IMG/VR virus record: IMGVR_UViG_3300026519_000011
Span: 3,783-67,782 of that record
Reading direction: 5' to 3' (one strand)
Source: a virus
Length of the DNA stretch: 64,000 nt
Shown: positions 21,685 to 63,391 of the stretch, one piece after another
How the letters are laid out: each line of letters begins with the position of its first letter
Position numbering within the stretch: position 1 is the stretch's first letter
Program-made: the position numbers and the translations under genes
Notes under the pieces: model-generated
The model's input: only the letters and a program-made list of their open reading frames with translations
Told to the model about the DNA's origin: nothing
Database searches by the model: none

Positions 21685-24600
21685 TGCCCACGCAGTACGC
21701 CTTTAATAGGCTGGAGGAATTACGACCTTCTCAACCTGAACCAGATATAATAGTAGCCTTAGCCAGTAGCTCCGTGGCTAGAGCGGAATCGCAGGTAGTT
21801 ACTGTGGTTGACTTAGGACTGGTATCCGAGGAGGTAAGCTTCACGGCTGTTGCTTACGTCTCAGAAGCGGGAATTCCCGTATCGCACATAAACACCTTTG
21901 ACATACCTAAACCACTAGTTCTGCTCCACAGAACCCCGGTTGCTGTGAGAAACGACCTACCTACTCTGTATGCTATTAACTCCCCAGAACTTGAGCAGGT
22001 ACTTGATGGGGCGGTCTTTGGTTACAGCGCCAGTGCGGTAAAGAACGCAACTAAACAAGAGGCGTATGTGGATACGCCTAAGCTAGATTTTAAGACCACC
22101 TTTAAGACGGACATCTATAAGCCTGCTACATTTATCCCACCCTCTAATGGCACACTATCTCACCCAGTAGGTGAAGCGGTGTATGGCGCAGGGCTTAAAC
22201 TGAAATGGGATGGGAATATACCCGCGCCAGAGTCTTGGGCTATCTGGATAGGGACACAGCCCTTACAACGTGACCTAGAAAGCCGAGAAGTACCACTCAC
22301 CCCTGCGGTAGGAGGTAAGTACGTTTATGACCTTTCAGGGTATACGCTTACGGGCGATGATTTTTACGTCACGCTGTATGCCGTGAACGCAGGTGTGCCT
22401 ACTTATGTTGATTTCAGGAAATTCCACTTCGATACGTTAAACAGTATTAGTCTGGTGTCACATCCTCTTGATACGGTTAAGATCCTCGATGATGATGAGG
22501 TGCTACAGTTCCGAGCCATGCCAACTGTGGCAGACACCTTTACCATGAGCGCCACTGATAACACCGGTACGGTACTAGCCACCGATGCCACGTTACTGCC
22601 GGACAGTAACTACCAGTTCTCTAATCTTGATAGTACGCTCACCTCGGTGTCGATACGCGCTACACTAAAGCTTACTGGAGACCCAGATAGTGAATACTAT
22701 ACGGAGTTCACGAGACAGTACGACCCATTTGCCCCTGTCACTTTACTTCCTATCACGCTAACAGGTAACAGTGGAATAGTGCAGTGGGTATCGCCAGGCT
22801 GGTCTGATGATCTTTCTTGGGATATAGCAGCAGGAACACCGGCTAACCCTACCAGTGCAGTGAACCTGACAGGGCTTCCTGCTGGGGCTAGACAAGTATC
22901 TGGCATTAACTTCCGACCAGAGCAAGGTCCGCTTGTGCTTACCGTCACTTGGACAAGAGAAGGCAATCAGCCTCAGTCCATTGTCGGGGCTGTGGACTCC
23001 CCTTCTCTTGGGTTGACTAAAGCTAGTGAAGGTACCACGCTCGGGGGCATCACGGAGGTAGTATCGTGGACTGAGATGCCTTTCACCGATAACTACAAGG
23101 TGGTGGCTACTCAAAATGGGGCGGTACTGTTCGACAGCGGAGAGTTAGTAGGGGTCACCAGCACCACGATGACTAACCTGCCGTTAGGTTCTCCAGACCT
23201 CATTACCGTCACCCTGTATCACACCTACCAAGGGGTAGTCACAGAAACACAAAAAGTATGGGCACCCTCCTCCTCTCTCTTTCAAAATGACTTAGACAAG
23301 CCGTTATTGGGCAATGCTTTGTTGCTGAAGTGGCTACCTATCTCAGGCGACCACGACAGCCTACGCGTGTACGTGGCTGGAAGGTCTGGAGGTACGGAGC
23401 TACCGGCTAACGCCACCGAGTCTTGGGTATACGACATCCCTCTAAACCTAGACCCAGCAAGGTTCCACTTGGTATCAGTTAAGGCGGACGTAGAGACCAT
23501 CATTCAGACGATGCCTCTCACTATAAGCAATCAAGCACCGGTACTTACCGCCCCTGCCCTGGCCATTACCAGTAATACTACACAGGTGGCGTGGACACGG
23601 TCGGTACAAAGCGTAGCCTTCCAGAAAGCTATCCTACTTGCCACAGACAACTCCGTAATAGCTTCAACAGGTCCGCTATCTAACCTTGACTCATCCGCAC
23701 TGCTGACAGGGATACCAGATGTACCTAACCCTATTCGTATCTTGCTGTCTGTAGGTTTTGGTGGGGCTGAACACGGATCTACCTTTGCGCTTGAGAATAC
23801 CCGACTATTCCAGAATCTCACCTTTCCTGATGACGCTTTCTACGCAGATTCCGAGCAGATCACGTGGGATATAATAACGTTAAAGACGTTGGAGAACGTA
23901 AACGTACAAGTAAAGAGCAAAGCCTCTGGGCTTATCTATTACACCTCTGGTCCTCTAGCGCCTGAGATTAGGGAAGCACCTGCTACTGGGTTACCTACCG
24001 ATGGAAGTGATTTAGTAGTTACCCTGTATGCCAAGGCAGTAGGCGATGACTGGGTGGCTAAGGAATTCCCAGTAAAGGCATACGACCAAGCGTTAGTAAC
24101 GCCTTACATTGTATCCCCGAATGCCAGCGATACATTGCCTGTAGGTCCTAATACCTTCAGACTGTCCACTAATGGGCTACCTATAGCGTATTGGAGGTTC
24201 GTCATGGTGACGAACCAAGATGACCTGTCAAACCCCATTTATGACAGCGGGAATGTGCCTCCCAGTACGGTACTTTTTCCTGTACCTGCTATAGGCACAG
24301 GAGCACCCGTATACGCGGTGATAACGTACACGGACGGTACGATAATTAAGAAGATAGTTAAGCGGTTCACTGCCCCTTTGACCGTACCAGAACTGACTAC
24401 CCCAATAATTTATGACAGTGAGGACTTTACCTACACTTGGGGTACTATGGGTGCTATCGTGACTGCGTGGAGATTTACCGCAGAGCAAGGTGGAGGTGAG
24501 TTCTACGACTCAGGGGTGCTGGCTGCGGGGACGTACAATGCTTTCGTGACAGGGCACAATGTTGTGGGGTTACCTGTTACGGCGAAACTACATTATCAAT

Positions 24601-26033
24601 TAACAGATGGAAGCTGGCACGTTGTGACCGAAATTAATACCGGATTTACGCGACGTCCTACACTGGTGTCACCTACCTCAGGAACTTTGCTCACTACGGA
24701 TTCACCGCTATTCACTTGGGACTCTAATGGTGTTGTGGCTGAGTCTTGGGTACTCAAGATGGCAGGAACGGGGGATATACCTGAAGTAATCTACGAAGGT
24801 ATTCCTACAGGCACGCTACAGAAGACCTTGTACGGTATTACCCCTGATGGTACGCCGCGTAACGTATGGCTTGGATTCAGAGAGACTGTTGATGCGCCTT
24901 ACAAGATGGAACTCTACACGTTCCCTACGTTAGGTTCTCCGGTGTTCATTAATAGTTACCCTCCTGTGGAGAGCTTCACGGCTAATTGGGATAACCGAGG
25001 TACTCAGGTGAATTACTACACAGTTAGGCTTGGTAGCACTGCGGGAGCACAAGATTTAGGAATATCTCCGTCCCTGCCTAATGCTAGAAGGGCGTTCAGT
25101 TTCTTCAACCTTCCTAGAGACGGCAGAGTTATGTATGTAACACTAGAGTGGGTTAAGGTAGGGGGTACTGCCCCTTCTTCGGTAAGTAAACAAGTAAGGG
25201 CCCAGCTTTACGCCCCTAGTATTATCCCTGTAGAAGCGCCGTTGGTGGGGTCTAAAATAATCTCTTGGCAGGCAGGCGGGGTGGCGGTTTCAGAGTGGGG
25301 CTTAGAGGTTGGTACCTCTTATGGTGGTTCTGATGTGTTTAGCATACCTACAGGAATTCCCGCAGATGACACTACGGAAGCCGTAGACCTGCCAGTGATA
25401 CAAGGTACAGCATATTACACCTTGCATTATAAGCGGGCTGATGACGGGACATGGCACACCTCTGAGTACTCTCATCCCTTGGTGCAAGCGCCTTACCTAA
25501 TAGCGCCTAGTGAAGGTACGGTACTTGCGGGGGATAAGGTTACAGTGTCATGGGGTCCAGGAACTGACAACAAACTGGACAGATGGCAGGTGCTTGCAGG
25601 TCCTGTGGCTGGCGCTAACACCTTCTATGACTCGGGTGAGCTACTCACCTTCAGGCCTCATGAAGAGGTCACAGGGCTTCCTATTGACGGTTCTGAGGTG
25701 TGGGTGACGTTACGGTATCACGATGGTGTGGCGGACACATGGGACGAAATAACCGCACGGTACATTGCCTTCTTGAAGTTACCTGAGTTTTCCAATACGG
25801 TACTAGGGCAGAACGGTTTGATAAAGGAGCGCCTACACGACTTCGAGCACACCTTCCAGTGGGACTTCTTTAACCTACCTATAACCTCCTTCGAGCTTCT
25901 TATGGGGTCTACTCCCGGAGCGGATGATGTCTATCATTCTGCGGTATTGTCTGGGAGCGCAACTTCAGATACCGTTACGGGCATCCCGTCAGACGGCAGG
26001 GATTTGTACTTAACCTTACGATGGACCTTCTAA
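21684..26033 (+). CDS. Large virion protein with tandem Ig/FN3-like repeats
   Basis: Roughly a dozen ~95-aa repeats of type SP..G..L....FTW......W.L..GT..G..D.YDSG.L....LP.DG...YVTL.Y. Confidence 0.7.
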   Translation: MPTQYAFNRLEELRPSQPEPDIIVALASSSVARAESQVVTVVDLGLVSEEVSFTAVAYVSEAGIPVSHINTFDIPKPLVLLHRTPVAVRNDLPTLYAINSPELEQVLDGAVFGYSASAVKNATKQEAYVDTPKLDFKTTFKTDIYKPATFIPPSNGTLSHPVGEAVYGAGLKLKWDGNIPAPESWAIWIGTQPLQRDLESREVPLTPAVGGKYVYDLSGYTLTGDDFYVTLYAVNAGVPTYVDFRKFHFDTLNSISLVSHPLDTVKILDDDEVLQFRAMPTVADTFTMSATDNTGTVLATDATLLPDSNYQFSNLDSTLTSVSIRATLKLTGDPDSEYYTEFTRQYDPFAPVTLLPITLTGNSGIVQWVSPGWSDDLSWDIAAGTPANPTSAVNLTGLPAGARQVSGINFRPEQGPLVLTVTWTREGNQPQSIVGAVDSPSLGLTKASEGTTLGGITEVVSWTEMPFTDNYKVVATQNGAVLFDSGELVGVTSTTMTNLPLGSPDLITVTLYHTYQGVVTETQKVWAPSSSLFQNDLDKPLLGNALLLKWLPISGDHDSLRVYVAGRSGGTELPANATESWVYDIPLNLDPARFHLVSVKADVETIIQTMPLTISNQAPVLTAPALAITSNTTQVAWTRSVQSVAFQKAILLATDNSVIASTGPLSNLDSSALLTGIPDVPNPIRILLSVGFGGAEHGSTFALENTRLFQNLTFPDDAFYADSEQITWDIITLKTLENVNVQVKSKASGLIYYTSGPLAPEIREAPATGLPTDGSDLVVTLYAKAVGDDWVAKEFPVKAYDQALVTPYIVSPNASDTLPVGPNTFRLSTNGLPIAYWRFVMVTNQDDLSNPIYDSGNVPPSTVLFPVPAIGTGAPVYAVITYTDGTIIKKIVKRFTAPLTVPELTTPIIYDSEDFTYTWGTMGAIVTAWRFTAEQGGGEFYDSGVLAAGTYNAFVTGHNVVGLPVTAKLHYQLTDGSWHVVTEINTGFTRRPTLVSPTSGTLLTTDSPLFTWDSNGVVAESWVLKMAGTGDIPEVIYEGIPTGTLQKTLYGITPDGTPRNVWLGFRETVDAPYKMELYTFPTLGSPVFINSYPPVESFTANWDNRGTQVNYYTVRLGSTAGAQDLGISPSLPNARRAFSFFNLPRDGRVMYVTLEWVKVGGTAPSSVSKQVRAQLYAPSIIPVEAPLVGSKIISWQAGGVAVSEWGLEVGTSYGGSDVFSIPTGIPADDTTEAVDLPVIQGTAYYTLHYKRADDGTWHTSEYSHPLVQAPYLIAPSEGTVLAGDKVTVSWGPGTDNKLDRWQVLAGPVAGANTFYDSGELLTFRPHEEVTGLPIDGSEVWVTLRYHDGVADTWDEITARYIAFLKLPEFSNTVLGQNGLIKERLHDFEHTFQWDFFNLPITSFELLMGSTPGADDVYHSAVLSGSATSDTVTGIPSDGRDLYLTLRWTF
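24197..24215. repeat. 19-bp palindrome copy 3 (intragenic)
   Basis: GTTCGTCATGGTGACGAAC, encodes FVMVTN. Confidence 0.9.
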
Positions 26034-31401: not shown

Positions 31402-31420
31402 GTTCATCACGGTGATGAAC
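31402..31420. repeat. 19-bp palindrome copy 4
   Basis: GTTCATCACGGTGATGAAC. Confidence 0.9.
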
Positions 31421-31514: not shown

Positions 31515-31533
31515 GTTCATCATGATGATGAAC
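31515..31533. repeat. 19-bp palindrome copy 5
   Basis: GTTCATCATGATGATGAAC. Confidence 0.9.
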
Positions 31534-36569: not shown

Positions 36570-36612
36570 GTTCGTCAGGATGACGAGCGACCCGTTCATC
36601 ACCATGATGAAC
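36570..36612. repeat. 19-bp palindrome copies 6 and 7 (tandem, upstream of polA)
   Basis: GTTCGTCAGGATGACGAGC (36570) and GTTCATCACCATGATGAAC (36594). Confidence 0.9.
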
Positions 36613-46066: not shown

Positions 46067-46357
46067 TTAGACTTCCAATGTTGGGGTTACTTTTTTAAAC
46101 GTCTTTTTAAGTTGGTCATACGCCCGTACCAACGCCAAGCCTTGTCCTGTGGCTACCACTTCCTTTTGGATAACTTCTACCAACGCCACACCTGCACATT
46201 TTTCCAGCTTGCGTACTTTATAACGACAGTAGGATTTATGCTGGTCTAACGCCTCACTCGCCTTAATAAACGATCCTTTCTTTATAGTCATCCGAAGGCT
46301 TTCTAGCCCGGTGTCCTCAAAAAGCATGTCATGCACTCCTCTACTATCCACGGTCAA
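46067..46357 (-). CDS. Hypothetical protein
   Basis: ORF between the SbcD-like and SbcC-like genes. Confidence 0.5.
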   Translation of the reverse strand: MTVDSRGVHDMLFEDTGLESLRMTIKKGSFIKASEALDQHKSYCRYKVRKLEKCAGVALVEVIQKEVVATGQGLALVRAYDQLKKTFKKVTPTLEV

Positions 46358-47408
46358 GGTACCTCCCTAGAGTTTCATTATGTGCTTCACTGAGGTGGGT
46401 CTTCACCCGCTCCACTACATCAAAGGAGTCTTCCTCCCTTACCTCTTTTCGATCGGCATGAGGGGTGAGCATCAAGTCACTTTCCAGTTTCCAAGAGATC
46501 GCCAGCGCCCCTTTCCCATAGCATGTCTTAGCTATTTTTACTAAGTCCGCTCCAGTCTGACGTTCCCCAGCTATTCTTACTAACTGAGGGAGGGCGTTCG
46601 TCATCATGACGAATGATGCCTCGTTAGCAAAATCAGCTATATCCACCTCCATAAAGCATTGTTCCTTTTTTAGCATGGGTACGTGCGTAACCTCCCCAGT
46701 ATCGGTGTCGTAAGACACGTACCCAAACCCTTTAGCCCCGCCTACATCAGAAAAACTAAGCGGGAACGGGGTACCTATACTGACGATCTTCCCTCCATTA
46801 AACGTCCTATGCTGGTGGTTATGCCCTACAAAGGTTACCTTGAAGGTGTCTGACACACACTTCATTAGTTCTTCTGTAAGGTTCAGGCTGGTCTCATCCT
46901 CCATGTGCTCAGCCATGCGTATGTTGCAGTGTAGGAGTAGCGTCTTATCCTTCCCTGCGTACTCGATACAGAGTTCCTTTATCTTGGTCTCAAATAACGC
47001 TTGGTCTGCTACGTGTGGGAGACATACCAACCCTAAGCCAGGTATCTCAATATGTTCAGTGTCCCCGTACCTCGTGGTGATTAGCTTAGGGGCAAGCTCC
47101 TTCACTTGCTTCATCACCTCGAAAGCTGAGTCCTCTCGGTGGGTGTTAGTTACGTCATGGTTACCAGCCAGTACCCAGTCACACGCGGACGCTTGCTGAA
47201 GGGCGAATCCTAAACCTTCAGAATCCTTAGGGTTTTTCCCATGGAATAGATCCCCCGCGTGTATCTTTACACTGTCTGGTGAGGCATTTTTTAAGCACTC
47301 AATGGTAGCCCAGTGCCGTAACCGTCTTAATTCTAGGCGGTTGGCTGGTGATGTACCTGACATTAGTAAGTGGTCTGCGTGTGTGTCTGATATAAAGTTT
47401 ATGATCAA
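46344..47408 (-). CDS. SbcD/Mre11-like metallophosphoesterase nuclease
   Basis: SDTH, GDLFH, GNHD and GHNH motifs. Confidence 0.92.
   Translation of the reverse strand: MIINFISDTHADHLLMSGTSPANRLELRRLRHWATIECLKNASPDSVKIHAGDLFHGKNPKDSEGLGFALQQASACDWVLAGNHDVTNTHREDSAFEVMKQVKELAPKLITTRYGDTEHIEIPGLGLVCLPHVADQALFETKIKELCIEYAGKDKTLLLHCNIRMAEHMEDETSLNLTEELMKCVSDTFKVTFVGHNHQHRTFNGGKIVSIGTPFPLSFSDVGGAKGFGYVSYDTDTGEVTHVPMLKKEQCFMEVDIADFANEASFVMMTNALPQLVRIAGERQTGADLVKIAKTCYGKGALAISWKLESDLMLTPHADRKEVREEDSFDVVERVKTHLSEAHNETLGRYLDRG
46596..46614. repeat. 19-bp palindrome copy 10 (inside the SbcD-like gene)
   Basis: GTTCGTCATCATGACGAAT. Confidence 0.85.
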
Positions 47409-48733
47409 AATATCGCCCCTCCTCGGGCGGCTAGAAATACTAGAGGTGAAAGAACCCTAACCCATAGAGGGCGGTCCTTGAAAGCCTTATCTTTTTCTGT
47501 CCTAGCGACTGTGTTGGTGTAAGTTACGGGACAAGATAACGCATCACCTTGGGTAGTGTCCACTCTTAGTCGTTTAAATGGAGTCAAAACTATCTCCACT
47601 ATTTCCGGTGAAGAGGCAGGCTTCATTACCAGATCCACTAACTGTTCTGCTACGCCCTCCACATCCTCGATGCCACCCACCCCTCTCAACATAGCGCGGT
47701 AAAGCGCCCTAGTTCTCCGCGTCTTTTCTGCCTTTAACCTCTGTTTAATTTCCTTTTGGGTCGGCTTATGTAAGCGAGGCTTCGCATACCGTCCTAAATC
47801 CATCGGCCGATCATGCACCCCAAACCTAGGAGGTACGGCATAGAAAGGTGAACGCTTAGGTCGGTACGACTCGGGATTACTCACTAGCAAACTAAGCACC
47901 TCGTACAGGTTGACCATGCCTCCCTTACGCAGCGCGTTCCATGGTCTCGCTTTTAGTCGAAGGGGAGGGCGCACGTCTTTCAGTATCGCAGCTAAGCCTC
48001 CAGTACCTATCCAAGGCACGCCATCCTTAATCTCCCTAACACTTACCACCCCTTGATAAAACGTGCCGTCTAGGTACATATTCATAACGGATGGCAGTTC
48101 CTTATTAAACTTCTGGAAGGTCAGCCTGTCCGTAGAGAACACATCCCACGGCTGTACGCTACATTCCTCTGGTACACCTACATGGTGTGATGGGGTCTTA
48201 CCAAGGAATATTTCCAGCGCCTGTTTATCCGTATAGTCTCTGGCTTCTGACCAGCCTACGTTAGCACTGTCGTAAGCGTATGCAGCAGGGAACTTAATCT
48301 GACGGGTTGGAATCAACTCTTTAGAGTACAAATAAGAAGGCAGGGAGAATACGCGGTAAGGTTCCGCTATGACCCTTCTCTTAGGTATGCCCGTTGCTCT
48401 CTGAAAACACTCAGAAAATCGAGACCACCACAAGGAAAGTAACGGGCGCTGGACCTCTACCGCCACGTTATATTCCCAAGACCCTCTTGCTTTAGCTATT
48501 AGCGCCTTCCATACAATGTCGTGCTGGTATATCTCCTCCTCGGTTAGAAAACAATTAAGCCCCACCTCGGTTAAAGGTAAAGGAAGGAAATCGTCTTGCC
48601 CCGCTGGAGGGGTCATGAATTGGGCTTCCATCCTTTTTGCTGTGTACCCCTCTACAGAAAACATTTCCCATAAGGGGGCAGGAAACAGCTCCTCTACATC
48701 CAGAGGGTCTCGTCCGTTAGGTAGATAGATCAT
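47405..48733 (-). CDS. Hypothetical protein (442 aa)
   Basis: Long ORF in operon register; no motif recognised. Confidence 0.6.
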   Translation of the reverse strand: MIYLPNGRDPLDVEELFPAPLWEMFSVEGYTAKRMEAQFMTPPAGQDDFLPLPLTEVGLNCFLTEEEIYQHDIVWKALIAKARGSWEYNVAVEVQRPLLSLWWSRFSECFQRATGIPKRRVIAEPYRVFSLPSYLYSKELIPTRQIKFPAAYAYDSANVGWSEARDYTDKQALEIFLGKTPSHHVGVPEECSVQPWDVFSTDRLTFQKFNKELPSVMNMYLDGTFYQGVVSVREIKDGVPWIGTGGLAAILKDVRPPLRLKARPWNALRKGGMVNLYEVLSLLVSNPESYRPKRSPFYAVPPRFGVHDRPMDLGRYAKPRLHKPTQKEIKQRLKAEKTRRTRALYRAMLRGVGGIEDVEGVAEQLVDLVMKPASSPEIVEIVLTPFKRLRVDTTQGDALSCPVTYTNTVARTEKDKAFKDRPLWVRVLSPLVFLAARGGAIF

Positions 48734-49137
48734 GTTATTTTAAGGTAGGTCCGTCCGGGTGGTATACTTTCCACGGGCTTAGTGCTGATTTCCTCTGCTA
48801 TTTTAATTGCGTCGAGAAGTCCGGTAAGTCCGTGATCTTCCACGTAAGCAGGTAGGCATGCCACCAAACAGGCTGGCAAATGTGCCTCCTCCACGGGTAT
48901 ATGAGGGTGATACTCCCGTGTTACCTTATCCTCTAATAGCGACGTAACGAACCCAGACATGCTAATACCCATGGCGCAACACAGGGACGTGAAAACCTCG
49001 TAACTGCGTATCCCTTCGTGTAGTATCTGGTACACCCTTTGCCTAGACACCCCCATGTTACTGGCCACCGTCTTCATAGGTATCCTAGGCTCTTGGTTAA
49101 GGAGTGGCATAATTCTACCCTGTATTACTATACTCAA
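48730..49137 (-). CDS. HTH DNA-binding protein
   Basis: MKTVASNMGVSRQRVYQIL helix-turn-helix. Confidence 0.7.
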   Translation of the reverse strand: MSIVIQGRIMPLLNQEPRIPMKTVASNMGVSRQRVYQILHEGIRSYEVFTSLCCAMGISMSGFVTSLLEDKVTREYHPHIPVEEAHLPACLVACLPAYVEDHGLTGLLDAIKIAEEISTKPVESIPPGRTYLKIT

Positions 49138-49148
49138 AACCCTACCCC

Positions 49149-49433
49149 TTACGCCGTGCGTTCAAGATAATGAAGCAGTAGCGTTAGGTGTGGGTTAGGT
49201 CCTTCGCACACGTCTCGCATGGTTTTGTAATACTGACATGGCGATAAGGCCTTCTTTAGCCATGCTGACAATAGTATCTCGTCATTCTTCTTTATAGCCA
49301 GCGTTAGCGCGTATTTAGTAGCCAGAGAAATACTACCACTGCGGTCTAATTCGATAAGACACTTTTCTTGTAAACCTCTTGTGTCTTCCCCTTCGATAAT
49401 TTCTTCCATACTGTTTCCTTTTATTGACATCAT
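49149..49433 (-). CDS. Hypothetical protein
   Basis: ORF directly downstream of the E1 gene. Confidence 0.5.
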   Translation of the reverse strand: MMSIKGNSMEEIIEGEDTRGLQEKCLIELDRSGSISLATKYALTLAIKKNDEILLSAWLKKALSPCQYYKTMRDVCEGPNPHLTLLLHYLERTA

Positions 49434-50155
49434 AATATTTTCGCCTCACTCTGAAGTAATGGAGGGGTCACCCCTCCAGCTCCGTCTCTAAAGCTATACT
49501 TTCTAGCAAAATCCACTTCCTGTGGGCCATTAAGCGCGTGAACCATTTGCCATAAGGCTGTACATGCTAAACTGTCCGCTGTAGCGCCTACACTTAACGC
49601 GCTACCACAAGCACTCACTTCCTCGTAAACGTCCTCTGCGGGGAGACTAGCCTCCCACGCCTCTACTTCCACAGGGTTGTCTGGTCTTACCACATAAGTC
49701 TCATGGTGAGATACCGCCATGCGAGTCTCCACTACTAAAGCAACCATTCCTGAAAGCACCAGCTCATCCATGATCTCCTGTCTTGCCTTGATGGTATCGA
49801 CAAGAAGAAAAACTATGTCTCGCTGTTCGGTTAGCTCCAAGTCTTCTGAGGTGGTTACCCACCCCTCCACCGCTGTAACAAGTTGCTGTTCCATGTTCTC
49901 ATTCACGAACTCAGCGATCTGGGTAGCTTTCTTTCCTCCCACATGCCGAGGGAAAAACAACTGGTTGGCTAGGTTGTGCGCCTCCACGGAATCGTCGTCA
50001 TAGACGAATATATCGGACATACCGAGTTTGGCTAGATGGTATACCACATGGGAGCCTACTGCACCTGCTCCTATGACATGCACCCTGCGGTCATTCATTA
50101 TTGGATTAAACACCTCTTGGTGTCTTGCTATATCTATCGTGTTACGTTTTTTCAT
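49430..50155 (-). CDS. E1-like ThiF/MoeB adenylating enzyme
   Basis: VIGAGAVGS, YDDDSVEAHNLANQ, LVD..KAR; candidate catalytic Cys in EEVSACG. Confidence 0.92.
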   Translation of the reverse strand: MKKRNTIDIARHQEVFNPIMNDRRVHVIGAGAVGSHVVYHLAKLGMSDIFVYDDDSVEAHNLANQLFFPRHVGGKKATQIAEFVNENMEQQLVTAVEGWVTTSEDLELTEQRDIVFLLVDTIKARQEIMDELVLSGMVALVVETRMAVSHHETYVVRPDNPVEVEAWEASLPAEDVYEEVSACGSALSVGATADSLACTALWQMVHALNGPQEVDFARKYSFRDGAGGVTPPLLQSEAKIL

Positions 50156-51480
50156 GGTCTGTATTCCTCGGAGGATCTGTATTCCTCGGATGGTGTGGTT
50201 GCTGTTGATTCATTAGTGGTTGCGGGTTCTGGTTCTGGTTCTGGTTCTTGTTCTGGTTCGTCATGGTGATGAACGACTACTTTTCTCTGGTATTTCTCGA
50301 CATCGTATAAGCTATCCAACTTATACCCATCCCAGTTACTGGCGGTAAAGTTAGCGAAGTCATAAAAATCCGTTACACCTTCGTCTGCCGCTTCATCAAG
50401 CATATTAGTGTTAGATAAAAATAGGATAAGGTGGTCTACCAGAGACTCGTAATTCCCTGTCTCAAGACAATCCATCACCACGCCCTCATAAGAGCCGAGA
50501 CAAGGCTGAGTTGCAGCTTCCCAGGAGTTTGTGTCCAACTTCTCAGAAAAAGGCATAATGCCCCATACGACGTGCGGGTGCGGTATAAGGGCGGAATCTA
50601 GTAGTCCTGCCTCATACCGTGACAGATTATAAATCCGTATGGCATCCCGAACGTATCTCATGCGTGTCGCTCCTTTAGTTAGGTCTACGTGGACAAGGAA
50701 CTTGCCGCAATATATATCACGATCATGATCAGACTGCCCTTCTTGATATTCATCATCGTGAGGATCGAACGTAGCCCTGCCTTGGATATACTCAGTCTCA
50801 AAGATTAGCTTCCCATCTACCGTACAATAATTCATCACCTTTGGGTGCGTTATTACTGGAATAGAGTCTGCTGGGGGAGACTCTTCAAGCAGAAGTAACT
50901 CGGCTTGAAGAGTCTTATACGTATCAACCTGAGCGGCAAGACGCGTCTGCAAATTACTTAGCATTTCCTGCGCATCCACTATCTCTGCGCGAATTCTAGC
51001 AGTCCGATCTAGGTTCACGATACGCAAGGATTCTGGTATGTTCATGGGGTTAGCGAGAGTAGCGTTCTGCTTCTCTACCCCGTATTTTTGGTACGCGTCT
51101 ATCACCATGTTCTCAAAGTGGACATGTGCTTCTGGGTCTCGTTCAAAACTACGGAAATCTGACTCCTCCACCGCTAGGAACAGCCCACCGTCGTAGACGA
51201 AGACCGCCCCAGATACCTGATCCCCTAAGTAAAGTGGTGCGTAAGGGATACCCACCACACCCCAAGAAGACCCAGCCATTGCGTGGCTAAGACCTCTGTA
51301 CAGAAATATCCCTGCTGGTATCGCCCCCTTTGCTCCGTTAAATTTCGCATAAACCTGTGCATTACCTATAAATTCAGAGAATAATGCACGTCTCCGGCCT
51401 TTGCCGGTGTCGTAATGCTCATCTATGAATACCGGTAGGCTATACGTCTCTAGAGGCATTCGTCCTATGTATCTAAGCAT
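50152..51480 (-). CDS. Prokaryotic E2-like (UBC-fold) protein with N-terminal coiled coil
   Basis: PHPHV...QPCLGSY...LILFL pattern typical of prokaryotic E2; likely start ATG 51480 (SD GGAGG). Confidence 0.7.
   Translation of the reverse strand: MLRYIGRMPLETYSLPVFIDEHYDTGKGRRRALFSEFIGNAQVYAKFNGAKGAIPAGIFLYRGLSHAMAGSSWGVVGIPYAPLYLGDQVSGAVFVYDGGLFLAVEESDFRSFERDPEAHVHFENMVIDAYQKYGVEKQNATLANPMNIPESLRIVNLDRTARIRAEIVDAQEMLSNLQTRLAAQVDTYKTLQAELLLLEESPPADSIPVITHPKVMNYCTVDGKLIFETEYIQGRATFDPHDDEYQEGQSDHDRDIYCGKFLVHVDLTKGATRMRYVRDAIRIYNLSRYEAGLLDSALIPHPHVVWGIMPFSEKLDTNSWEAATQPCLGSYEGVVMDCLETGNYESLVDHLILFLSNTNMLDEAADEGVTDFYDFANFTASNWDGYKLDSLYDVEKYQRKVVVHHHDEPEQEPEPEPEPATTNESTATTPSEEYRSSEEYRP
50256..50274. 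repeat. 19-bp palindrome copy 11 (inside the E2-like gene tail)
   Basis: GTTCGTCATGGTGATGAAC, abutted by (GGTTCT)n. Confidence 0.9.
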
Positions 51481-52867
51481 TACGCGCCTCCTCGTCCTCA
51501 GACACTGCTCTGGCACTCTCACTACCTGCTGATGGTAATAGGTCAGAGCCTCTCTGCCAGCACGCTATCGCCTCGTTACTCATTCCGTATAGATTTGTGA
51601 ATTCTCTCTCTAATATCTGTGCCATTTTCTTGACATCCCCCGCTATGAAGGCTTGGTACAGTTGACCGTACAGCATGGATGGTGGCGGTGAGTCTACTAT
51701 AATTATATTGCTTATGCTGTCTACGCCAACATATACCTTAGACAGTATTTCCTTTAAAAACTCGCTGTTACTATCTTCTGTTGACCTTGTGGGTAACGTC
51801 GTGGAATACTTATAAGGATCCTCGAATAACGGGGACACCATAGTGCAAGGATGTATGTGGATTTTTACGTCATTACCTCTATTACTAATGTACATGGAGG
51901 ATAGGGGTGCAACTCTCTCCAGCCTTAGAGAGGTGGAGTAGGTCTTAGTACTATTATGGATATGCACCACCACCTCTGGAGCCTTTACCTCCTTGCCTCG
52001 CACCTTTATGGTTAGTTCTGGTATCCGTATGGCCCAAGTGTAATCATCATACACGGTGAATACACTGCCCTTTTTAGTTGTTATCGAACCTACTTCTAGT
52101 GTTGGTGATACACCATCAGCCCTCGCTCTGAGAGCTGCCATTTCATCCTCAGTCTCTTGCACTTCCTGCCCTAGCTTAGCAATATTTTCCCATTCCCTAC
52201 TCAGAGCGTGCTTCTTATCGTGTAAAACGTAGGTAAGCTCTGTTAACCTACCGTTAACCGTGTCGGAATTTTTAGCAGGAATTACTATTCTAGTACTTCC
52301 CTGAGGTAAATCTCCATCAGAAATCTCGCCAAATATTCGTTCGACGAGTGGCTCCAGAACCTTGATCGAGCCTGATGATGAGAAAATATCCCGCGAGGAT
52401 ATTAGCACCTTCTCGCCTCCTTCTAGCTGTACCGCGATGGCTACTATCTTATTCTCATACTGGAAAAGTATATTATTCACTTTGTCCAGTCCTTCTGCGA
52501 CGTACACGACACTATTTAACGAGGTATACTCAGTCTGGAATATGTGCAGGGATTTAGGGTCTTTCAGGCTGAACACCGCTTCGGTCTCTACTAGACCTTC
52601 AGCCTCCACCGTGTTATTTAAGTAATTCCCTAAGCCAATTCTCTTGGAGTATACAAAAGGTATTGGCGGGTGGTTCAAACACCAAGGTAATATATCGGCA
52701 TCGGATACTATCGTTCGTCGGTTTCCTTGCTCGTTTACATCATTAGGGCCTGCCATCCAGCCCCAAATATGCGGGTAATTAGGTATCCTTTCTGGTGTGA
52801 CCACCAAAGCACCTTTGACTACTGCTTCGTAAAGGTTTCCCTCAAAAGGTATTATGTTGTCGTTCAT
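51473..52867 (-). CDS. Divergent E2-like paralog (possibly inactive)
   Basis: Same layout as its neighbour (N-domain, coiled coil, beta strands, HIHP, terminal helices) but no CLG motif. Confidence 0.45.
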   Translation of the reverse strand: MNDNIIPFEGNLYEAVVKGALVVTPERIPNYPHIWGWMAGPNDVNEQGNRRTIVSDADILPWCLNHPPIPFVYSKRIGLGNYLNNTVEAEGLVETEAVFSLKDPKSLHIFQTEYTSLNSVVYVAEGLDKVNNILFQYENKIVAIAVQLEGGEKVLISSRDIFSSSGSIKVLEPLVERIFGEISDGDLPQGSTRIVIPAKNSDTVNGRLTELTYVLHDKKHALSREWENIAKLGQEVQETEDEMAALRARADGVSPTLEVGSITTKKGSVFTVYDDYTWAIRIPELTIKVRGKEVKAPEVVVHIHNSTKTYSTSLRLERVAPLSSMYISNRGNDVKIHIHPCTMVSPLFEDPYKYSTTLPTRSTEDSNSEFLKEILSKVYVGVDSISNIIIVDSPPPSMLYGQLYQAFIAGDVKKMAQILEREFTNLYGMSNEAIACWQRGSDLLPSAGSESARAVSEDEEARNA

Positions 52868-52907
52868 AATTAGTTCTCTCTCTCTCGTTGTGTTTCTAAA
52901 AAATATC

Positions 52908-52926
52908 GTTCATCATCGTGATGAAC
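52908..52926. repeat. 19-bp palindrome copy 12
   Basis: GTTCATCATCGTGATGAAC. Confidence 0.9.
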
Positions 52927-52957
52927 GGACGTCCGTTAAATTGAGGTTTGTACGCTC

Positions 52958-54316
52958 CTAAGTAGCTTTACATTCGTTAAACCTAAGCACCTCAAACCCA
53001 GTAAATAGCCACCCAGCCCCGTCTTCTGATGATGCCTCTAGTAGCGTTTTAGTGGGTGTTAAGTCACCCATAACACCCTTCTCGTTTAATCTCTTATAGG
53101 CCTCCTCGTGCTCAACCAGCACGCCTGTACCTATTACCTCTCCGAATAGGAGAATAGGTATCTCATGTCTGAGATTTCTTAATCCTTTCTCAGCCAAAAC
53201 ATCCACCGAACCACCTTCTGCTATAGTCTTACCGCAGTCCCTCCCTAAGCTAAACCCATAATCCCATACAGACCTTATACGGGCGATATTTTTCTCGTAC
53301 CCAGCGAACTCTATGTGAGTCTCCACCACGGATAATAACCCGTCTCCTACTACCGTGAGCTGGCTGTCCTCCAGCACTTCGTCCAGCCATGTCTTACATC
53401 TTGATTCAGGGTCCACATCATGTATGCCTACCACAATGCCTTGTGCAATACCTAACAAGGCTACCTCGCTTAGCTCTTGATAAGCATCCAAAAATAGGGA
53501 ATCACCTCTCGCCAGCCCCTTCCCAAGAGAGATCAGATCACTGTCAAATGCCGCTAGATGTTCACCCCATAGTTCGAGTTCGCTAAGTGAGTGGGTTATC
53601 CCCAACTCCAGATAGCTAATAGCTTCTGCATATTCTTCATCCATATCCTCATCATAAATTTCATCTACGAAAGGGTCTGGAGAGGTGTCCACTTGACCTA
53701 TATACCCTGACAAACCCCTTCCTCTCCCTTGCCAACCCCCTACTCTGGAACCTTGCCACCCGTATTGGGTTGAATTTGTAGCCACTTTGACATGCTTCAA
53801 CTGCTTTTTGAGCGCCTTTATTCTGTCTGTATTGGTATAGACAATCGCCACCGAGAGGTTCTCCCATACAAGGTTAAGCCCTAGGTCGATAGCATCGAAG
53901 CGTATTTCCTGCTTCTTATTTATAATTATCCTTACCATCTTTTCTCCGTCGGAATAGTTAGACAGAAATTTCTGAATAGTTACCTCATCGTCCGCTGATG
54001 GCTTTACCGGCATGTCCACATGGGAGTGGCAGTGAACCAGTAGGTCTGATAATTCCTCATCTTCGTCCATCATGTCTTCCCGCATCTTTGCCTCTTGCTC
54101 AGGCTCGATGTCGGCATCCACGGAGGTTACCGTCTGCTCTGGTATTCGTATTGGTCCATGCACTAGCCACACGTTGTCCTCGCTTACGGATAGGTGGGCA
54201 TAGAATGCTACCTCGGTAGCTACGGCATTTATTGCGTATAGCATTTCATTGTAGGTGTCATAGGCTATTTGACCTATAGGTGGGGTTTTCTCGTGTAGCA
54301 CTCTCAGCTTACTCAT
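52958..54316 (-). CDS. JAB/JAMM metalloprotease with acidic C-terminal extension
   Basis: Upstream Glu (TEVAF) plus HSH-x7-S-x2-D (HSHVDMPVKPSADD); likely start ATG 54316 (SD GAGGA). Confidence 0.88.
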   Translation of the reverse strand: MSKLRVLHEKTPPIGQIAYDTYNEMLYAINAVATEVAFYAHLSVSEDNVWLVHGPIRIPEQTVTSVDADIEPEQEAKMREDMMDEDEELSDLLVHCHSHVDMPVKPSADDEVTIQKFLSNYSDGEKMVRIIINKKQEIRFDAIDLGLNLVWENLSVAIVYTNTDRIKALKKQLKHVKVATNSTQYGWQGSRVGGWQGRGRGLSGYIGQVDTSPDPFVDEIYDEDMDEEYAEAISYLELGITHSLSELELWGEHLAAFDSDLISLGKGLARGDSLFLDAYQELSEVALLGIAQGIVVGIHDVDPESRCKTWLDEVLEDSQLTVVGDGLLSVVETHIEFAGYEKNIARIRSVWDYGFSLGRDCGKTIAEGGSVDVLAEKGLRNLRHEIPILLFGEVIGTGVLVEHEEAYKRLNEKGVMGDLTPTKTLLEASSEDGAGWLFTGFEVLRFNECKAT

Positions 54317-54456
54317 ATCATTTCCTCGGATGTATAACGTAAAATTACCAGCCACCATTGGCCTGTAATTGTTGAATTTAAAATAGAGGTCGGAACACGA
54401 CTATCGACCTCTAGCCTACTTAGTAGGGCTTGGTGCTACTGACTACAACATTAAAC

Positions 54457-55179
54457 TTAGTCTTGTGCTTTGTCATCGACATGCTCTGATTCAACATTTT
54501 TAGTTCCAGTAAGGTCTATGGCACAGGCTTCAACCTCTTCAGGTAGTTCCTTACTCACGGCGTTTATCGCTTCTACACGACGTGCTAACTCTATCGTCTG
54601 CTCAGCACATGAGGTAGCTACCTCAAGGCGTATGTTCCAGTCCTTGACCGTGTTATCCATTTCTGTAGCATTAAGTACGCTAATGACTAGCGGGTAATCC
54701 GTGTCATCAGCTTGCGCCTCCTGTACGCTCATTGCACGCTTCTTGGTAACTACTCCTATCATGCCTGGGTTACCTGTTATAACTAGAGAACCTACCTCCA
54801 CTTTGTTCTTAGCTACGACAGGTGAGAGTATGCAAGGCGTGCTCAAACCTTCTGGATTACTACGACGTTTAATCGCCTTCTTGTTACCGAACTCCAAAGG
54901 GTCTGATAAAGCTACCTCACACACCGTCAATCCCTCAGTCATTAGTAACGCTAACTGGGTAGCTCTGTTAGATGACTTAGAGCCTCCTGCAAAAGAGATT
55001 CTAGTGTAGGTATGTGCCAGCGCTGACCCAGATAACTCCACCCCTCCAGATGATGGCTTTAAACCTGAATCAAGCCCTAGTTTTTCTTTAAGACCATCAA
55101 TAGTCAGGGTGTCGTCGATGGTGACTGGTCCCGTAGTAGACATTGATGGGGTTATTACTCGTATAGTTGTAGTACTCAT
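54457..55179 (-). CDS. Ubiquitin-like (beta-grasp) domain fused to a C-terminal phage protein
   Basis: First ~70 aa follow the beta-beta-alpha-beta-beta pattern and end in RISFAGG(66)SKSSN; first gene of the JAB-E2-E1 cluster. Confidence 0.6.
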   Translation of the reverse strand: MSTTTIRVITPSMSTTGPVTIDDTLTIDGLKEKLGLDSGLKPSSGGVELSGSALAHTYTRISFAGGSKSSNRATQLALLMTEGLTVCEVALSDPLEFGNKKAIKRRSNPEGLSTPCILSPVVAKNKVEVGSLVITGNPGMIGVVTKKRAMSVQEAQADDTDYPLVISVLNATEMDNTVKDWNIRLEVATSCAEQTIELARRVEAINAVSKELPEEVEACAIDLTGTKNVESEHVDDKAQD

Positions 55180-55217: not shown

Positions 55218-55236
55218 GTTCATCGCCATGATGAAC
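55218..55236. repeat. 19-bp palindrome copy 13
   Basis: GTTCATCGCCATGATGAAC, upstream of the Ubl gene. Confidence 0.88.
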
Positions 55237-55279: not shown

Positions 55280-55741
55280 CTAAAAAATATGTTTACCTAA
55301 TGTAATACTTCCCATAAGTCCGCTATCGACTTCGCGACCTTCACCGTCACCGTCCCCATTAAAACTACTCTGTCGCTCCTCTAGGCAAGACTTACACAAG
55401 GCTGTCGGTAGTGGGTCATCTTCGTTATAACTAATGCCATACTCGTTGTAGTCATATTCACTATCTAGTACGACCTCGCCTAGGTCACTCAACGTAGCCG
55501 CCAACTGCTCTTGTTCTCCTTCAGACCAAGAATGCTCCTCTATCTGAGTAAGTACCGAGTAGTCGTCCCCATTATCAAGGTCATATGTACATCCTTGTAT
55601 TCTTGATACTAGGCCACCACAGTCCTCACAGGTCACCTCTATCGTATAGGTAACGGTTGAGTCAATGTCTTGAATACTGGTACTAAACATCTTTTGGTAC
55701 CACCTTGAAGGTTCTTGATAGGTTGTCGTAATCCACCTCAC
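55280..55741 (-). CDS. Acidic Zn-binding hypothetical protein
   Basis: CEDC...CKSC pair. Confidence 0.55.
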   Translation of the reverse strand: MRWITTTYQEPSRWYQKMFSTSIQDIDSTVTYTIEVTCEDCGGLVSRIQGCTYDLDNGDDYSVLTQIEEHSWSEGEQEQLAATLSDLGEVVLDSEYDYNEYGISYNEDDPLPTALCKSCLEERQSSFNGDGDGEGREVDSGLMGSITLGKHIF

Positions 55742-55941: not shown

Positions 55942-55960
55942 GTTCATCACCATGATGAAC
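55942..55960. repeat. 19-bp palindrome copy 14
   Basis: GTTCATCACCATGATGAAC, downstream of P2. Confidence 0.9.
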
Positions 55961-60257: not shown

Positions 60258-60293
60258 ATTATAGCAGGATTATAGGTGTTTGTCAACCCCTAG
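60258..60293 (-). promoter_or_regulatory. Consensus sigma70 promoter P1
   Basis: CTAGGGG-TTGACA-N17-TATAAT with extended -10 TG. Confidence 0.9.
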
Positions 60294-63372: not shown

Positions 63373-63391
63373 GTTCATCACCGTGATGAAC
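63373..63391. repeat. 19-bp palindrome copy 19
   Basis: GTTCATCACCGTGATGAAC. Confidence 0.9.

Follow-up and report, generated by a model that had tools for sequence, protein, structure and literature searches.

A putative ubiquitin-like activation and conjugation cluster in the replication region of a tailed phage

Ubiquitin-like (Ubl) conjugation in bacteria has been linked to defence against phages: according to the available part of PMC11601596, the experimentally characterised conjugation sets, Bil and CBASS, are all antiphage, and Bub is placed with them by context. Plasmids and integrative and conjugative elements (ICEs) carry an uncharacterised set known as PRTRC (NCBIfam TIGR03735-03742) or class 6d, which is outlined in the accessible portion of PMC1779556. 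No function for PRTRC was found in print, the listed mentions being either annotations of genomes or transcriptomes or uses of the same string in other senses. Here we describe five minus-strand genes (49430-55179) of IMG/VR virus record IMGVR_UViG_3300026519_000011 that encode a candidate Ubl fusion, a predicted JAMM peptidase, a protein of no recognised family, an E2-like protein and a ThiF-type E1. The whole stretch of DNA that was analysed, referred to as the window, measures 64,000 nucleotides and corresponds to positions 3783-67782 of the 67,782-bp record, the completeness of which is estimated at 57%. On balance, we consider it probable that the cluster is a phage-borne pathway for Ubl activation and conjugation, with maturation by the JAB peptidase, adenylation by E1, formation of a thioester at Cys341 of the E2-like protein, and transfer, each step being drawn from homology and motifs.

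The five genes are arranged in the order Ubl-JAB-CC2-E2L-E1, and all were found where a previous sequence-only reading of this DNA had placed them, with every motif that it had named. Ubl-fusion (54457-55179) encodes 240 aa with ISFAGG at residues 61-66, and comprises a candidate Ubl domain (residues 1-66, ending with this motif; 54982-55179, minus strand) and a 174-residue tail (54457-54981, minus strand) that matched nothing in Pfam or among the PDB sequences. The other genes are JAB, a predicted JAMM/MPN+ peptidase (52958-54316, with an open reading frame (ORF) that stays open up to an ATG at 54358), CC2 (51473-52867; 464 aa), the E2-like protein E2L (50152-51480, open up to a GTG at 51522, which gives the 456-aa reading used here for its residue numbers), and E1 (49430-50155; 241 aa, a single adenylation domain). 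In the proposed pathway, the JAMM peptidase would cut the 240-aa precursor after Gly66, yielding a 66-residue Ubl with a C-terminal Gly-Gly and presumably freeing the 174-residue tail as a separate protein. The minimal ThiF-type E1, probably a homodimer, would adenylate the C-terminus of the Ubl using ATP, and the activated Ubl would pass to Cys341 in the UBC-like domain of E2L, perhaps straight from the adenylate, a direct passage that is conceivable because the E1 has no Cys domain in a crossover loop. E2L would then move the Ubl onto a lysine of some phage or host protein. CC2, the C-terminal region of JAB, or both, may serve E2L as adaptors, and JAB might also undo the modification.

The sequence-only reading had looked to CBASS Cap2/Cap3 and Bil for the relatives of this cluster, but the nearest described set is PRTRC/class 6d (PMC1779556, as far as the accessible text goes). 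PRTRC has the same kinds of component, namely a small Ubl that ends in Gly and carries a short or long tail, an E2-like protein, a JAB and a short ThiF-type E1, and is likewise carried by mobile elements. Its E2-like protein, PRTRC_B, has the Cys motif GS[IV]C.G (for example ...GSICIGS), and its gene order, C (Ubl ending ...GAKGG plus tail)-(F)-B-A (JAB)-ThiF, equals the Ubl-E2L-JAB-ThiF order of the modules that we found in Flavobacterium phage FpV4, crAss-like phage DAC15 and a group of gut phages (see below). By profile comparison, the likeness extends to E1 (P 4e-15) and JAB (P 0.0017). Nevertheless, the window set was rejected as a member of PRTRC/class 6d. The E1 reaches 54.3 bits against a cut-off of 144.75 for TIGR03736, and has Asn where the PRTRC motif GRQ has Arg; E2L is unrelated to PRTRC_B at the level of detection used, and possesses an N-terminal domain and a long helix; the window Ubl is fused to a tail of 174 residues; and the gene order differs. 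E2L also has its His before the Cys, as in classical E2s, whereas the class 6d E2s, in the part of PMC1779556 that covers them, have no His before the Cys and one after it. Finally, PRTRC has a ParB-family partner, and no ParB (ParB_N) was present in the 67.8-kb, approximately 57% complete record. In PRTRC protein C of a Polaromonas plasmid (L053, 4022-4462), a tail of ~70 residues follows ...GTKGAG, while the Paraburkholderia protein ends ...GAKGGDA, suggesting that variable, cleavable tails are a feature of PRTRC as well.

Other described systems share individual traits with the cluster. Type I Bub (6E.1), as presented in the available part of PMC11601596, has a Ubl as the N-terminal part of a fusion that a JAB/JAMM peptidase cuts after a conserved Gly, and a minimal, homodimer-type E1 with no obvious catalytic Cys in its crossover loop. 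In Bub, however, the Ubl is fused to the E2 and the JAB to the E1, whereas JAB and E1 are separate genes in the window, and the Bub E2 has an invariant Ser (oxyester) where E2L has an invariant Cys (same source and extent). We found no evidence that the Ubl tail is a Bub-like E2, and no DUF6527-type protease turned up among the 10 cluster proteins scanned. Bil (BilABCD) resembles the cluster in having separate genes for Ubl, E2, JAB and E1, and in conjugating its Ubl to protein lysines, but it is bacterial and directed at phages, and its large E1 consists of three parts (inactive and active adenylation domains and a Cys domain), compared to one ThiF domain in 241 aa here. In type II CBASS, the E1 domain of Cap2 is the best PADLOC match to the window E1, and a JAB peptidase acts as antagonist or maturase, but Cap2 is an E2-E1 fusion and its 'Ubl' is the C-terminus of the CD-NTase; the window has no such fusion, contains a beta-grasp candidate, and no CD-NTase (SMODS domain) was found in the record. 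The only previously described phage pair of Ubl and JAB, within the part of PMC1779556 available, is TAPI with TAPK (JAB-NlpC/P60) of lambda and T1. In TAPI, too, a C-terminal domain comes after the Ubl, but this pair belongs to a tail module without E1 or E2, whereas the window cluster is part of the early replication region and is distant from the tail genes. Lastly, the archaeal SAMP/UbaA/HvJAMM1 system combines a single short E1 with a JAMM protease, and SAMP2 is the nearest named structural neighbour of the window Ubl (TM 0.77). To our knowledge, sampylation needs no E2, whereas an E2-like protein is conserved beside E1 in the phage module.

The E1 is firmly predicted to be a ThiF-type adenylating enzyme. 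Residues 22-224 match Pfam ThiF (PF00899) with 86.3 bits (cut-off 28.1, E 2.2e-24), and the matches among PDB sequences are UBA3 (2.6e-7), MccB, UBA1, UBA5, ThiF, Cap2 and MoeB. In NCBIfam, the E1 part of '6A-MBL cap2_3' (8.5e-19), ThiF (TIGR02356, 2.5e-17) and PRTRC_ThiF (1.2e-14) were matched, all far under their cut-offs, and the PADLOC E1-E2 (Cap2) models gave 6e-13 to 5e-6, over the E1 part only. The protein carries the motif GAGAVG and two cysteines, Cys183 and Cys198. When it was aligned with other phage and PRTRC E1s, G29, G31, G34, D53, N61, Q65, K76, D120, R125 and C183 were invariant in all 20 sequences; by analogy with MoeB and ThiF, we take the GxGxxG motif to be nucleotide-binding, K76 to be the conserved Lys, and D120 to be the Mg-binding Asp. 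A complex of the E1 dimer with Ubl residues 1-66, predicted from a 20-row alignment and without controls, scored 0.00 against a mark of 0.32, a value that carries no weight either way.

For E2L, a UBC-like E2 is the most likely reading, because two models agree, the His/Cys motif is invariant, and the gene lies beside E1; the E2-like assignment as such is made with moderate confidence. The predicted architecture consists of an N-terminal domain, a long helix (~164-214), and a UBC-like domain (~213-402; nt 50317-50886) that contains the sequence HPHVV...PCLG at residues 315-343, with HPH at 315-317 and Cys341 (nt 50494-50580). Judged from this sequence, Cys341 is a candidate E2 catalytic Cys after an HPN-like motif. 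An exhaustive HMMER search of 1.84 billion representatives yielded two relatives (P0003 with 36% and P0004 with 30% identity), whereas a word-index search of 5.8 billion proteins returned only E2L itself with the single sequence, and only E2L and the input P0004 with the 3-sequence alignment. No match to E2L or JAB was obtained by tblastn in 50,697 phage records, and viral-contig searches with E2L, E1, JAB, the E2L-family alignment and a related protein of 892 aa from a jumbo phage gave no confirmed relatives. L312, P314, H315, P316, H317, P340, C341, L342, G343 and Y345 are invariant in the three family members; with six gut-phage proteins added, P314, P316, H317, C341, Y345, N373 and D376 are identical in 9 of 9. 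None of the three members matched the Pfam E2 models (UQ_con, Prok-E2_A to E) at E <= 5, and the family profile found nothing below E 0.18 among PDB sequences.

An AF2 model of E2L was made for residues 129-410, using a 9-row alignment of three relatives and six gut-phage C-terminal regions, aligned with MAFFT on the motif. The pLDDT is 63-85 in the long helix as well as in the secondary-structure elements of the globular part, and the elements follow each other as in a UBC domain: helix, strands, a long loop with HPH and Cys, and helices. VIA-align, which is independent of Foldseek, was used to compare the model with 48,161 chains, and the top match was E2S (Z 6.0, root-mean-square deviation (rmsd) 4.2, 129 of 151 residues). 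Among the 50 matches listed, seven were E2s and one was the RWD domain of Knl1, which has a UBC-like fold, three more had an rmsd above 20, and the others matched the long helix only. When VIA-align was applied to 185 Foldseek candidates, the top 22 of the 41 matches listed were all E2s (E2S, UbcH8, UbcH7, Ubc13), with Z 6.4-5.1, rmsd 3.7-4.6, and alignments that cover 114-133 of about 150 residues; the other UBC-fold matches, Knl1 and another five E2 entries, were scattered over ranks 23-31, and the best non-UBC match was Csm1 (Z <= 4.8, rmsd 12-14), the others having Z <= 2.8. In the ESMFold model of E2L from the ESM Atlas, Prok-E2_D clusters appeared at rows 4 and 5 (residues 215-417, TM 0.42 by row), and in BFVD, the best Foldseek matches to the AF2 model (E 0.016) were uncharacterised phage proteins of 420-592 aa. 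Based on these models, a UBC fold is suggested with modest confidence. The E2 pattern HPHV...CLG that the sequence-only reading had pointed out in this gene thus holds up, with invariant His and Cys and with E2s as the globular fold that was matched.

The assignment of JAB as a JAMM peptidase has good support from its sequence. The predicted active-site motif HSHVDMPVKPSADD at 53987-54028 fits the pattern HxHx7Sx2D and is the single match to it among the 127,996 six-frame residues of the window, and all 9 aligned sequences, PRTRC_A among them, share H97, S98, H99, S107 and D110, with an upstream Glu in TEVAF. The intact JAMM motif (HSH-x7-S-x2-D) that had been proposed for this gene is therefore confirmed. 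The N-terminal ~175 residues are homologous to a JAB encoded beside ThiF in gut phages (blastp 7e-8, hhalign 7.8e-9), whereas the hhalign relation to PRTRC_A given above and that to the JABs of FpV4 and DAC15 (P 0.0015) are weak. The PADLOC JAB model gave E 0.017, and nothing was found among PDB sequences at E <= 10. The C-terminal region of ~280 residues matched neither PDB sequences nor the accessory proteins of other modules.

The assignment of residues 1-66 of Ubl-fusion as a Ubl is of moderate strength. The ESM Atlas holds the exact protein, with a model pLDDT of 0.51, and all 10 structural neighbours of this model belong to beta-grasp/Ubl families. The best one, SAMP2, aligned over residues 2-67 with the TM value, by row, mentioned above, and was accompanied by viral clusters of 74-aa and 79-aa proteins (TM 0.73 and 0.70) and a viral ThiS/SAMP2-like cluster. 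Ubiquitin/Rad60-SLD, ThiS-MoaE, EccD and parkin were found as well, the latter two being proteins with Ubl domains. G65-G66 are situated at the edge of the aligned beta-grasp range of 2-67. Since every Atlas row was 'under the bar', and TM is weak for so short a domain, the modelled beta-grasp fold is graded as probable and not higher. The profile of Ubl-fusion found nothing below E 0.18 among PDB sequences, and a word-index search of 5.8 billion proteins returned only the protein itself. The sequence-only reading had described a beta-grasp-like N-terminus ending in FAGG; the FAGG is present and the ten neighbours agree with the fold, but the model is of low confidence.

CC2 matched nothing in Pfam, PHROGs, PADLOC or NCBIfam, and among PDB entries only an SMC coiled coil, at a non-significant E of 0.8. 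Comparison by hhalign with every module protein tested gave P >= 0.064. The sequence-only reading had counted two E2-like proteins here, but CC2 as a second E2 was rejected, as it shows no detectable relation to E2s (P 0.39 against E2L). The same reading had called CC2 and E2L coiled-coil proteins, for which E2L offers the long AF2 helix (model residues 36-86, pLDDT 71-81) and CC2 only the SMC match. Both proteins are ~460 aa long, are helical in a central stretch, and have Cys as residue 341 ('HIHPC' versus 'HPH...PC'), a curiosity rather than evidence. They could be very diverged paralogues, possibly an E2/E2-variant pair, and a role of CC2 as a partner or adaptor is also possible.

Similar modules were found in other phages. 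A 2.8-kb metagenome contig (L009) carries homologues of E2L, E1, and the two downstream window genes p94 and p442, in the window's order, with identities of 57% for E1, 36% for p94 and 33% for p442, and this co-occurrence with E2L and E1 suggests that p94 and p442 may be part of the module. Using E1 as tblastn query, ThiF-like genes were detected in 65 phage records, and the surroundings of these genes were examined for four groups. The ~140-kb gut phages (record MT835544 and 42 IMG/VR loci) encode a Ubl-like protein of 78 aa that ends ...QKMDNA plus a variable tail of 1-3 residues, a 491-aa protein with IPQPHI...C[FY][RG]GY, a JAB with HSHx7Sx2D, ThiF and a reverse transcriptase. The latter gene follows directly after ThiF (L008 6954-8291; loci L010-L051; RVT_1 2.3e-15), and in some loci is itself followed by a gene for an LPD18-domain protein. 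In FpV4, gp53 has a Ubl-like N-terminus ending ...KSGG and then a tail of ~205 residues, gp52 has the sequence MHSHL...FCIGS, and gp51 and gp50 are an extended JAB and ThiF, respectively; genes 91 to 88 of DAC15 have the same layout (...KIKSGA plus tail; YMHSHV...DPCLGEG; JAB; ThiF). The Xanthomonas jumbo phage PhiXhv-12 encodes a 140-aa protein ending ASGG*, an 892-aa protein (IHPHMAV...GSLCLGSF) and ThiF, and no JAB was seen in the jumbo-phage module. Across the modules, the candidate Ubls terminate with GG, GA or NA, beyond which a tail of 0 to ~200 residues extends, and such small-residue ends with variable tails are what would be expected if a peptidase matures them.

At the profile level, hhalign related E2L to the 892-aa jumbo-phage protein over 160 columns (P 0.0012) and, exactly over the motif, to the gut family (P 0.0023-0.0038). 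As controls, 72 comparisons of unrelated parts (Ubl tail, C-terminal region of JAB, CC2, p94, p442 and the neighbouring p135 against accessory proteins of other modules and PRTRC_E/F) gave a minimum P of 0.064. Synteny with the window, proposed earlier as a check on the cluster, was seen as the E2L-E1-p94-p442 order in the metagenome contig; the gut phages, FpV4 and DAC15 have the order Ubl-E2L-JAB-ThiF in common with each other. In every phage examined, the modules are located among DNA-metabolism genes. The components of FpV4 and DAC15 that PHROGs recognises are listed there as 'unknown function', and DAC15_91 and the two gut-phage proteins scanned fall into none of its families. No published phage-encoded set of E1, E2, JAB and Ubl was found in the literature searched, a search outside of which most subscription journals fell, and none of the phage-related phrases looked for in the preprint of the Bil paper was present.

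Several observations weigh against a conjugation pathway in the window. In E1, the Arg of the NLxRQ motif is replaced by Asn (HNLANQ; the Asn is opposite the UBA3 Arg), the other phage E1s having N or G at this position, whereas the PRTRC E1s retain R. The next helix follows directly after C183, which leaves almost no room for a crossover loop and none for a Cys domain, and this near-absence of the loop, together with the Asn, suggests that the chemistry of this E1 may differ. C183 occupies what we take to be the PxCT or first zinc-ligand position of E1s, not that of their catalytic Cys, and in the absence of a loop or Cys domain this makes an E1 thioester uncertain. Hence, of the ThiF/E1 with GxGxxG and a free Cys listed by the sequence-only reading, the fold, the motif and the conservation of C183 stand, but its catalytic role is uncertain. 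JAB reaches 20.5 bits with Pfam Prok-JAB (PF14464; E 4.6e-4), under the cut-off of 25. Ubl-fusion has no match in Pfam, NCBIfam, PHROGs or PADLOC, its AF2 model made without an alignment was unusable (pLDDT 32.6) and its Atlas model has a pLDDT of 0.51, and all 13 hhalign comparisons of Ubl with Ubl gave P >= 0.016. E2L likewise has no match in Pfam, NCBIfam, PHROGs or PADLOC, and its family counts three members in all databases searched. The link to the gp52-like proteins of FpV4 and DAC15 consists of motif and gene position (hhalign P 0.15), PRTRC_B gave P 0.18 with no TIGR03737 match, and His317 and Cys341 are spaced by 23 residues, compared to 5 in the gut family. The AF2 model of E2L has a mean pLDDT of 57.5, with values below 50 in the HPH...Cys loop, its best fold match (Z 6.4) is under the caution line of 8, and Foldseek gave no PDB match at E <= 0.001, 18 of the 50 matches shown being E2s with E 3.6-5.9. 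In addition, no E3 and no target are known for the system.

These points bear on three other explanations, each of which we consider unlikely. Ubl, E1 and JAB could form a carrier or C-terminal-activation pathway instead of tagging proteins, using ThiS/MoaD/CysO-type thiocarboxylate or MccB-type adenylate chemistry for a phage-specific modification of a small molecule, nucleotide or DNA, with E2L as an accessory acyl carrier or transferase. The lack of a catalytic-Cys domain in E1 would fit such a role, as would the presence of ThiF (TIGR02356, 2.5e-17), MoeB and MccB among its matches, the ThiS/MoaD and SAMP2 neighbours of the Ubl model, which are also sulfur carriers, and the DNA-metabolism surroundings of the modules; moreover, sulfur-transfer operons of JAB, ThiS/MoaD and E1 are known (PMC1779556, rows 4a-4e, in the part available). 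However, no ThiG, MoaE or rhodanese was found in the whole 67.8-kb record (~57% complete), in agreement with the absence of nearby thiamine or molybdopterin genes noted previously, and a scan of 10 cluster proteins revealed neither cysteine desulfurase nor synthase. MccB has an N-terminal peptide-clamp domain, which the window E1 lacks. Furthermore, a UBC-like protein with an invariant Cys is conserved beside E1 in each family, whereas sulfur-carrier operons need none.

The conjugation chemistry could also be as proposed while the cassette is cargo for Bil/CBASS-like defence or superinfection exclusion, aimed at competing phages or plasmids, an explanation that we regard as improbable. It would agree with the antiphage role of the characterised bacterial sets and with the high mobility of PRTRC/6d cassettes (available parts of PMC11601596 and PMC1779556, respectively), and the best E1 matches are the PADLOC E1-E2 models and NCBIfam '6A-MBL cap2_3'. 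Yet PADLOC recognises the E1 domain alone and no other component, and the record has no CD-NTase. In addition, the genes share a single early operon with replication and SbcCD-like genes, to which 4-nt overlaps couple them, and the module is found at an equivalent place in FpV4 and crAss-like DAC15, both presumably virulent phages, which makes a defence role less likely. Alternatively, only E1 and JAB may be real, the 'Ubl' and 'E2' having been over-read from short motifs and weak models, with five genes that do not form one unit. Ubl, E2L and CC2 indeed lack a curated family match, all of the fold evidence stays below the thresholds of the methods (Atlas 'under the bar', Foldseek E >1, Z <8), and a terminator-like hairpin separates Ubl-fusion and JAB from CC2, E2L and E1. 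We nonetheless doubt this explanation, as all four kinds of component occur together again in PRTRC and in three further, unrelated groups of phages, and three of the four in another group, the GG is positioned exactly at the predicted beta-grasp edge, the His and Cys are invariant, and the two models, although made in different ways, match no globular fold other than that of E2s.

The source virus is a tailed phage. Terminase, portal, major head and tail genes (the latter at 10-31 kb) occupy the plus strand of the window, including two very large ORFs in the structural block (14188-21684, 2498 aa; 21684-26033, 1449 aa), and DNA polymerase, helicases, primase and an SbcC-like gene the minus strand. 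No tRNA genes were found in the window. The phage has no close relatives among 50,697 phage records, blastn of the region giving a single 43-bp match. Downstream of E1, the minus strand encodes p94 (49149-49433), the helix-turn-helix (HTH) protein p135 (48730-49137) and p442 (47405-48733), none with a family match, p94 and p442 being the possible module members mentioned above. Overlaps of 4 nt occur at the E2L/E1, E1/p94 and p135/p442 junctions, and the operon continues past the cluster into SbcD/SbcC-like genes, the SbcD match in NCBIfam (46344-47408) being weak. Ahead of the cluster, where its operon begins, the promoter 'P2' of the sequence-only reading was recovered as a putative promoter with a perfect extended sigma-70 consensus (56034-56006, minus strand; TTGACA-17-TATAAT plus TG, 12/12 matches). 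A consensus sigma-70 promoter and an early replication and repair operon suggest that the cluster acts early in infection. A second perfect extended consensus (12/12, TG) is present at 60258-60286 on the minus strand and, like P2, stands at the head of the early region of that strand. Between P2 and the cluster (55280-55741) is the gene for a zinc-ribbon-like protein of 153 aa that has two CxxC pairs and no significant family, and upstream of P2 (56659-57183) is that for a 174-aa HTH protein of the LysR type (NCBIfam LysR models, 2e-14), which is truncated.

A pattern scan for the conserved hairpin (C)CGTTCATCA-N3-TGATGAACG(G) gave 7 copies in the window (31402-31420, 31515-31533, 36594-36612, 52908-52926, 55218-55236, 55942-55960 and 63373-63391), compared to 0 in 100 shuffles. 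The six copies up to 55960 fall outside the listed ORFs, and the copy at 63373 is beyond the listed ORFs. Of the copies near the cluster, one is in the P2 leader, another shortly precedes Ubl-fusion, and a third separates JAB from CC2. This last hairpin, at 52908-52926, is the only one with a T-run behind it (minus strand), and is terminator-like. The hairpin may be a phage-specific terminator or attenuator, or a protein-binding RNA or DNA site.

Returning to the conjugation pathway, a wider reading seems possible, although we put it forward tentatively: unrelated tailed phages, namely crAss-like Crassvirales, Flavobacterium Fipvunavirus, the ~140-kb gut phages, Xanthomonas/Erwinia jumbo phages and the present phage, may share a self-contained and previously unrecognised Ubl-conjugation cassette that is used early to tag host or phage proteins. 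Its parts would be a Ubl precursor whose tail can be cleaved off, a UBC-like E2 of a new family (xPH...C[LI]G), a JAMM maturase and a stripped-down E1 with no Arg finger and no Cys domain, and the cassette would be a distant relative of the plasmid PRTRC/6d cassettes. Since look-alike modules are present in cultured phages (FpV4, and DAC15 on Bacteroides thetaiotaomicron), the idea is directly testable. If it is true, tagging by the phage could disarm defence or DNA-repair factors of the host, or control the phage's own replication machinery. To date, Ubl conjugation in bacteria is established (Bil, CBASS Cap2/Cap3) or inferred (Bub) only as antiphage defence, and the phage set would be the viral counterpart of these systems, with the same chemistry on the viral side. 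It would also offer a first approach to the function of the plasmid PRTRC/6d cassettes, which have long been uncharacterised.

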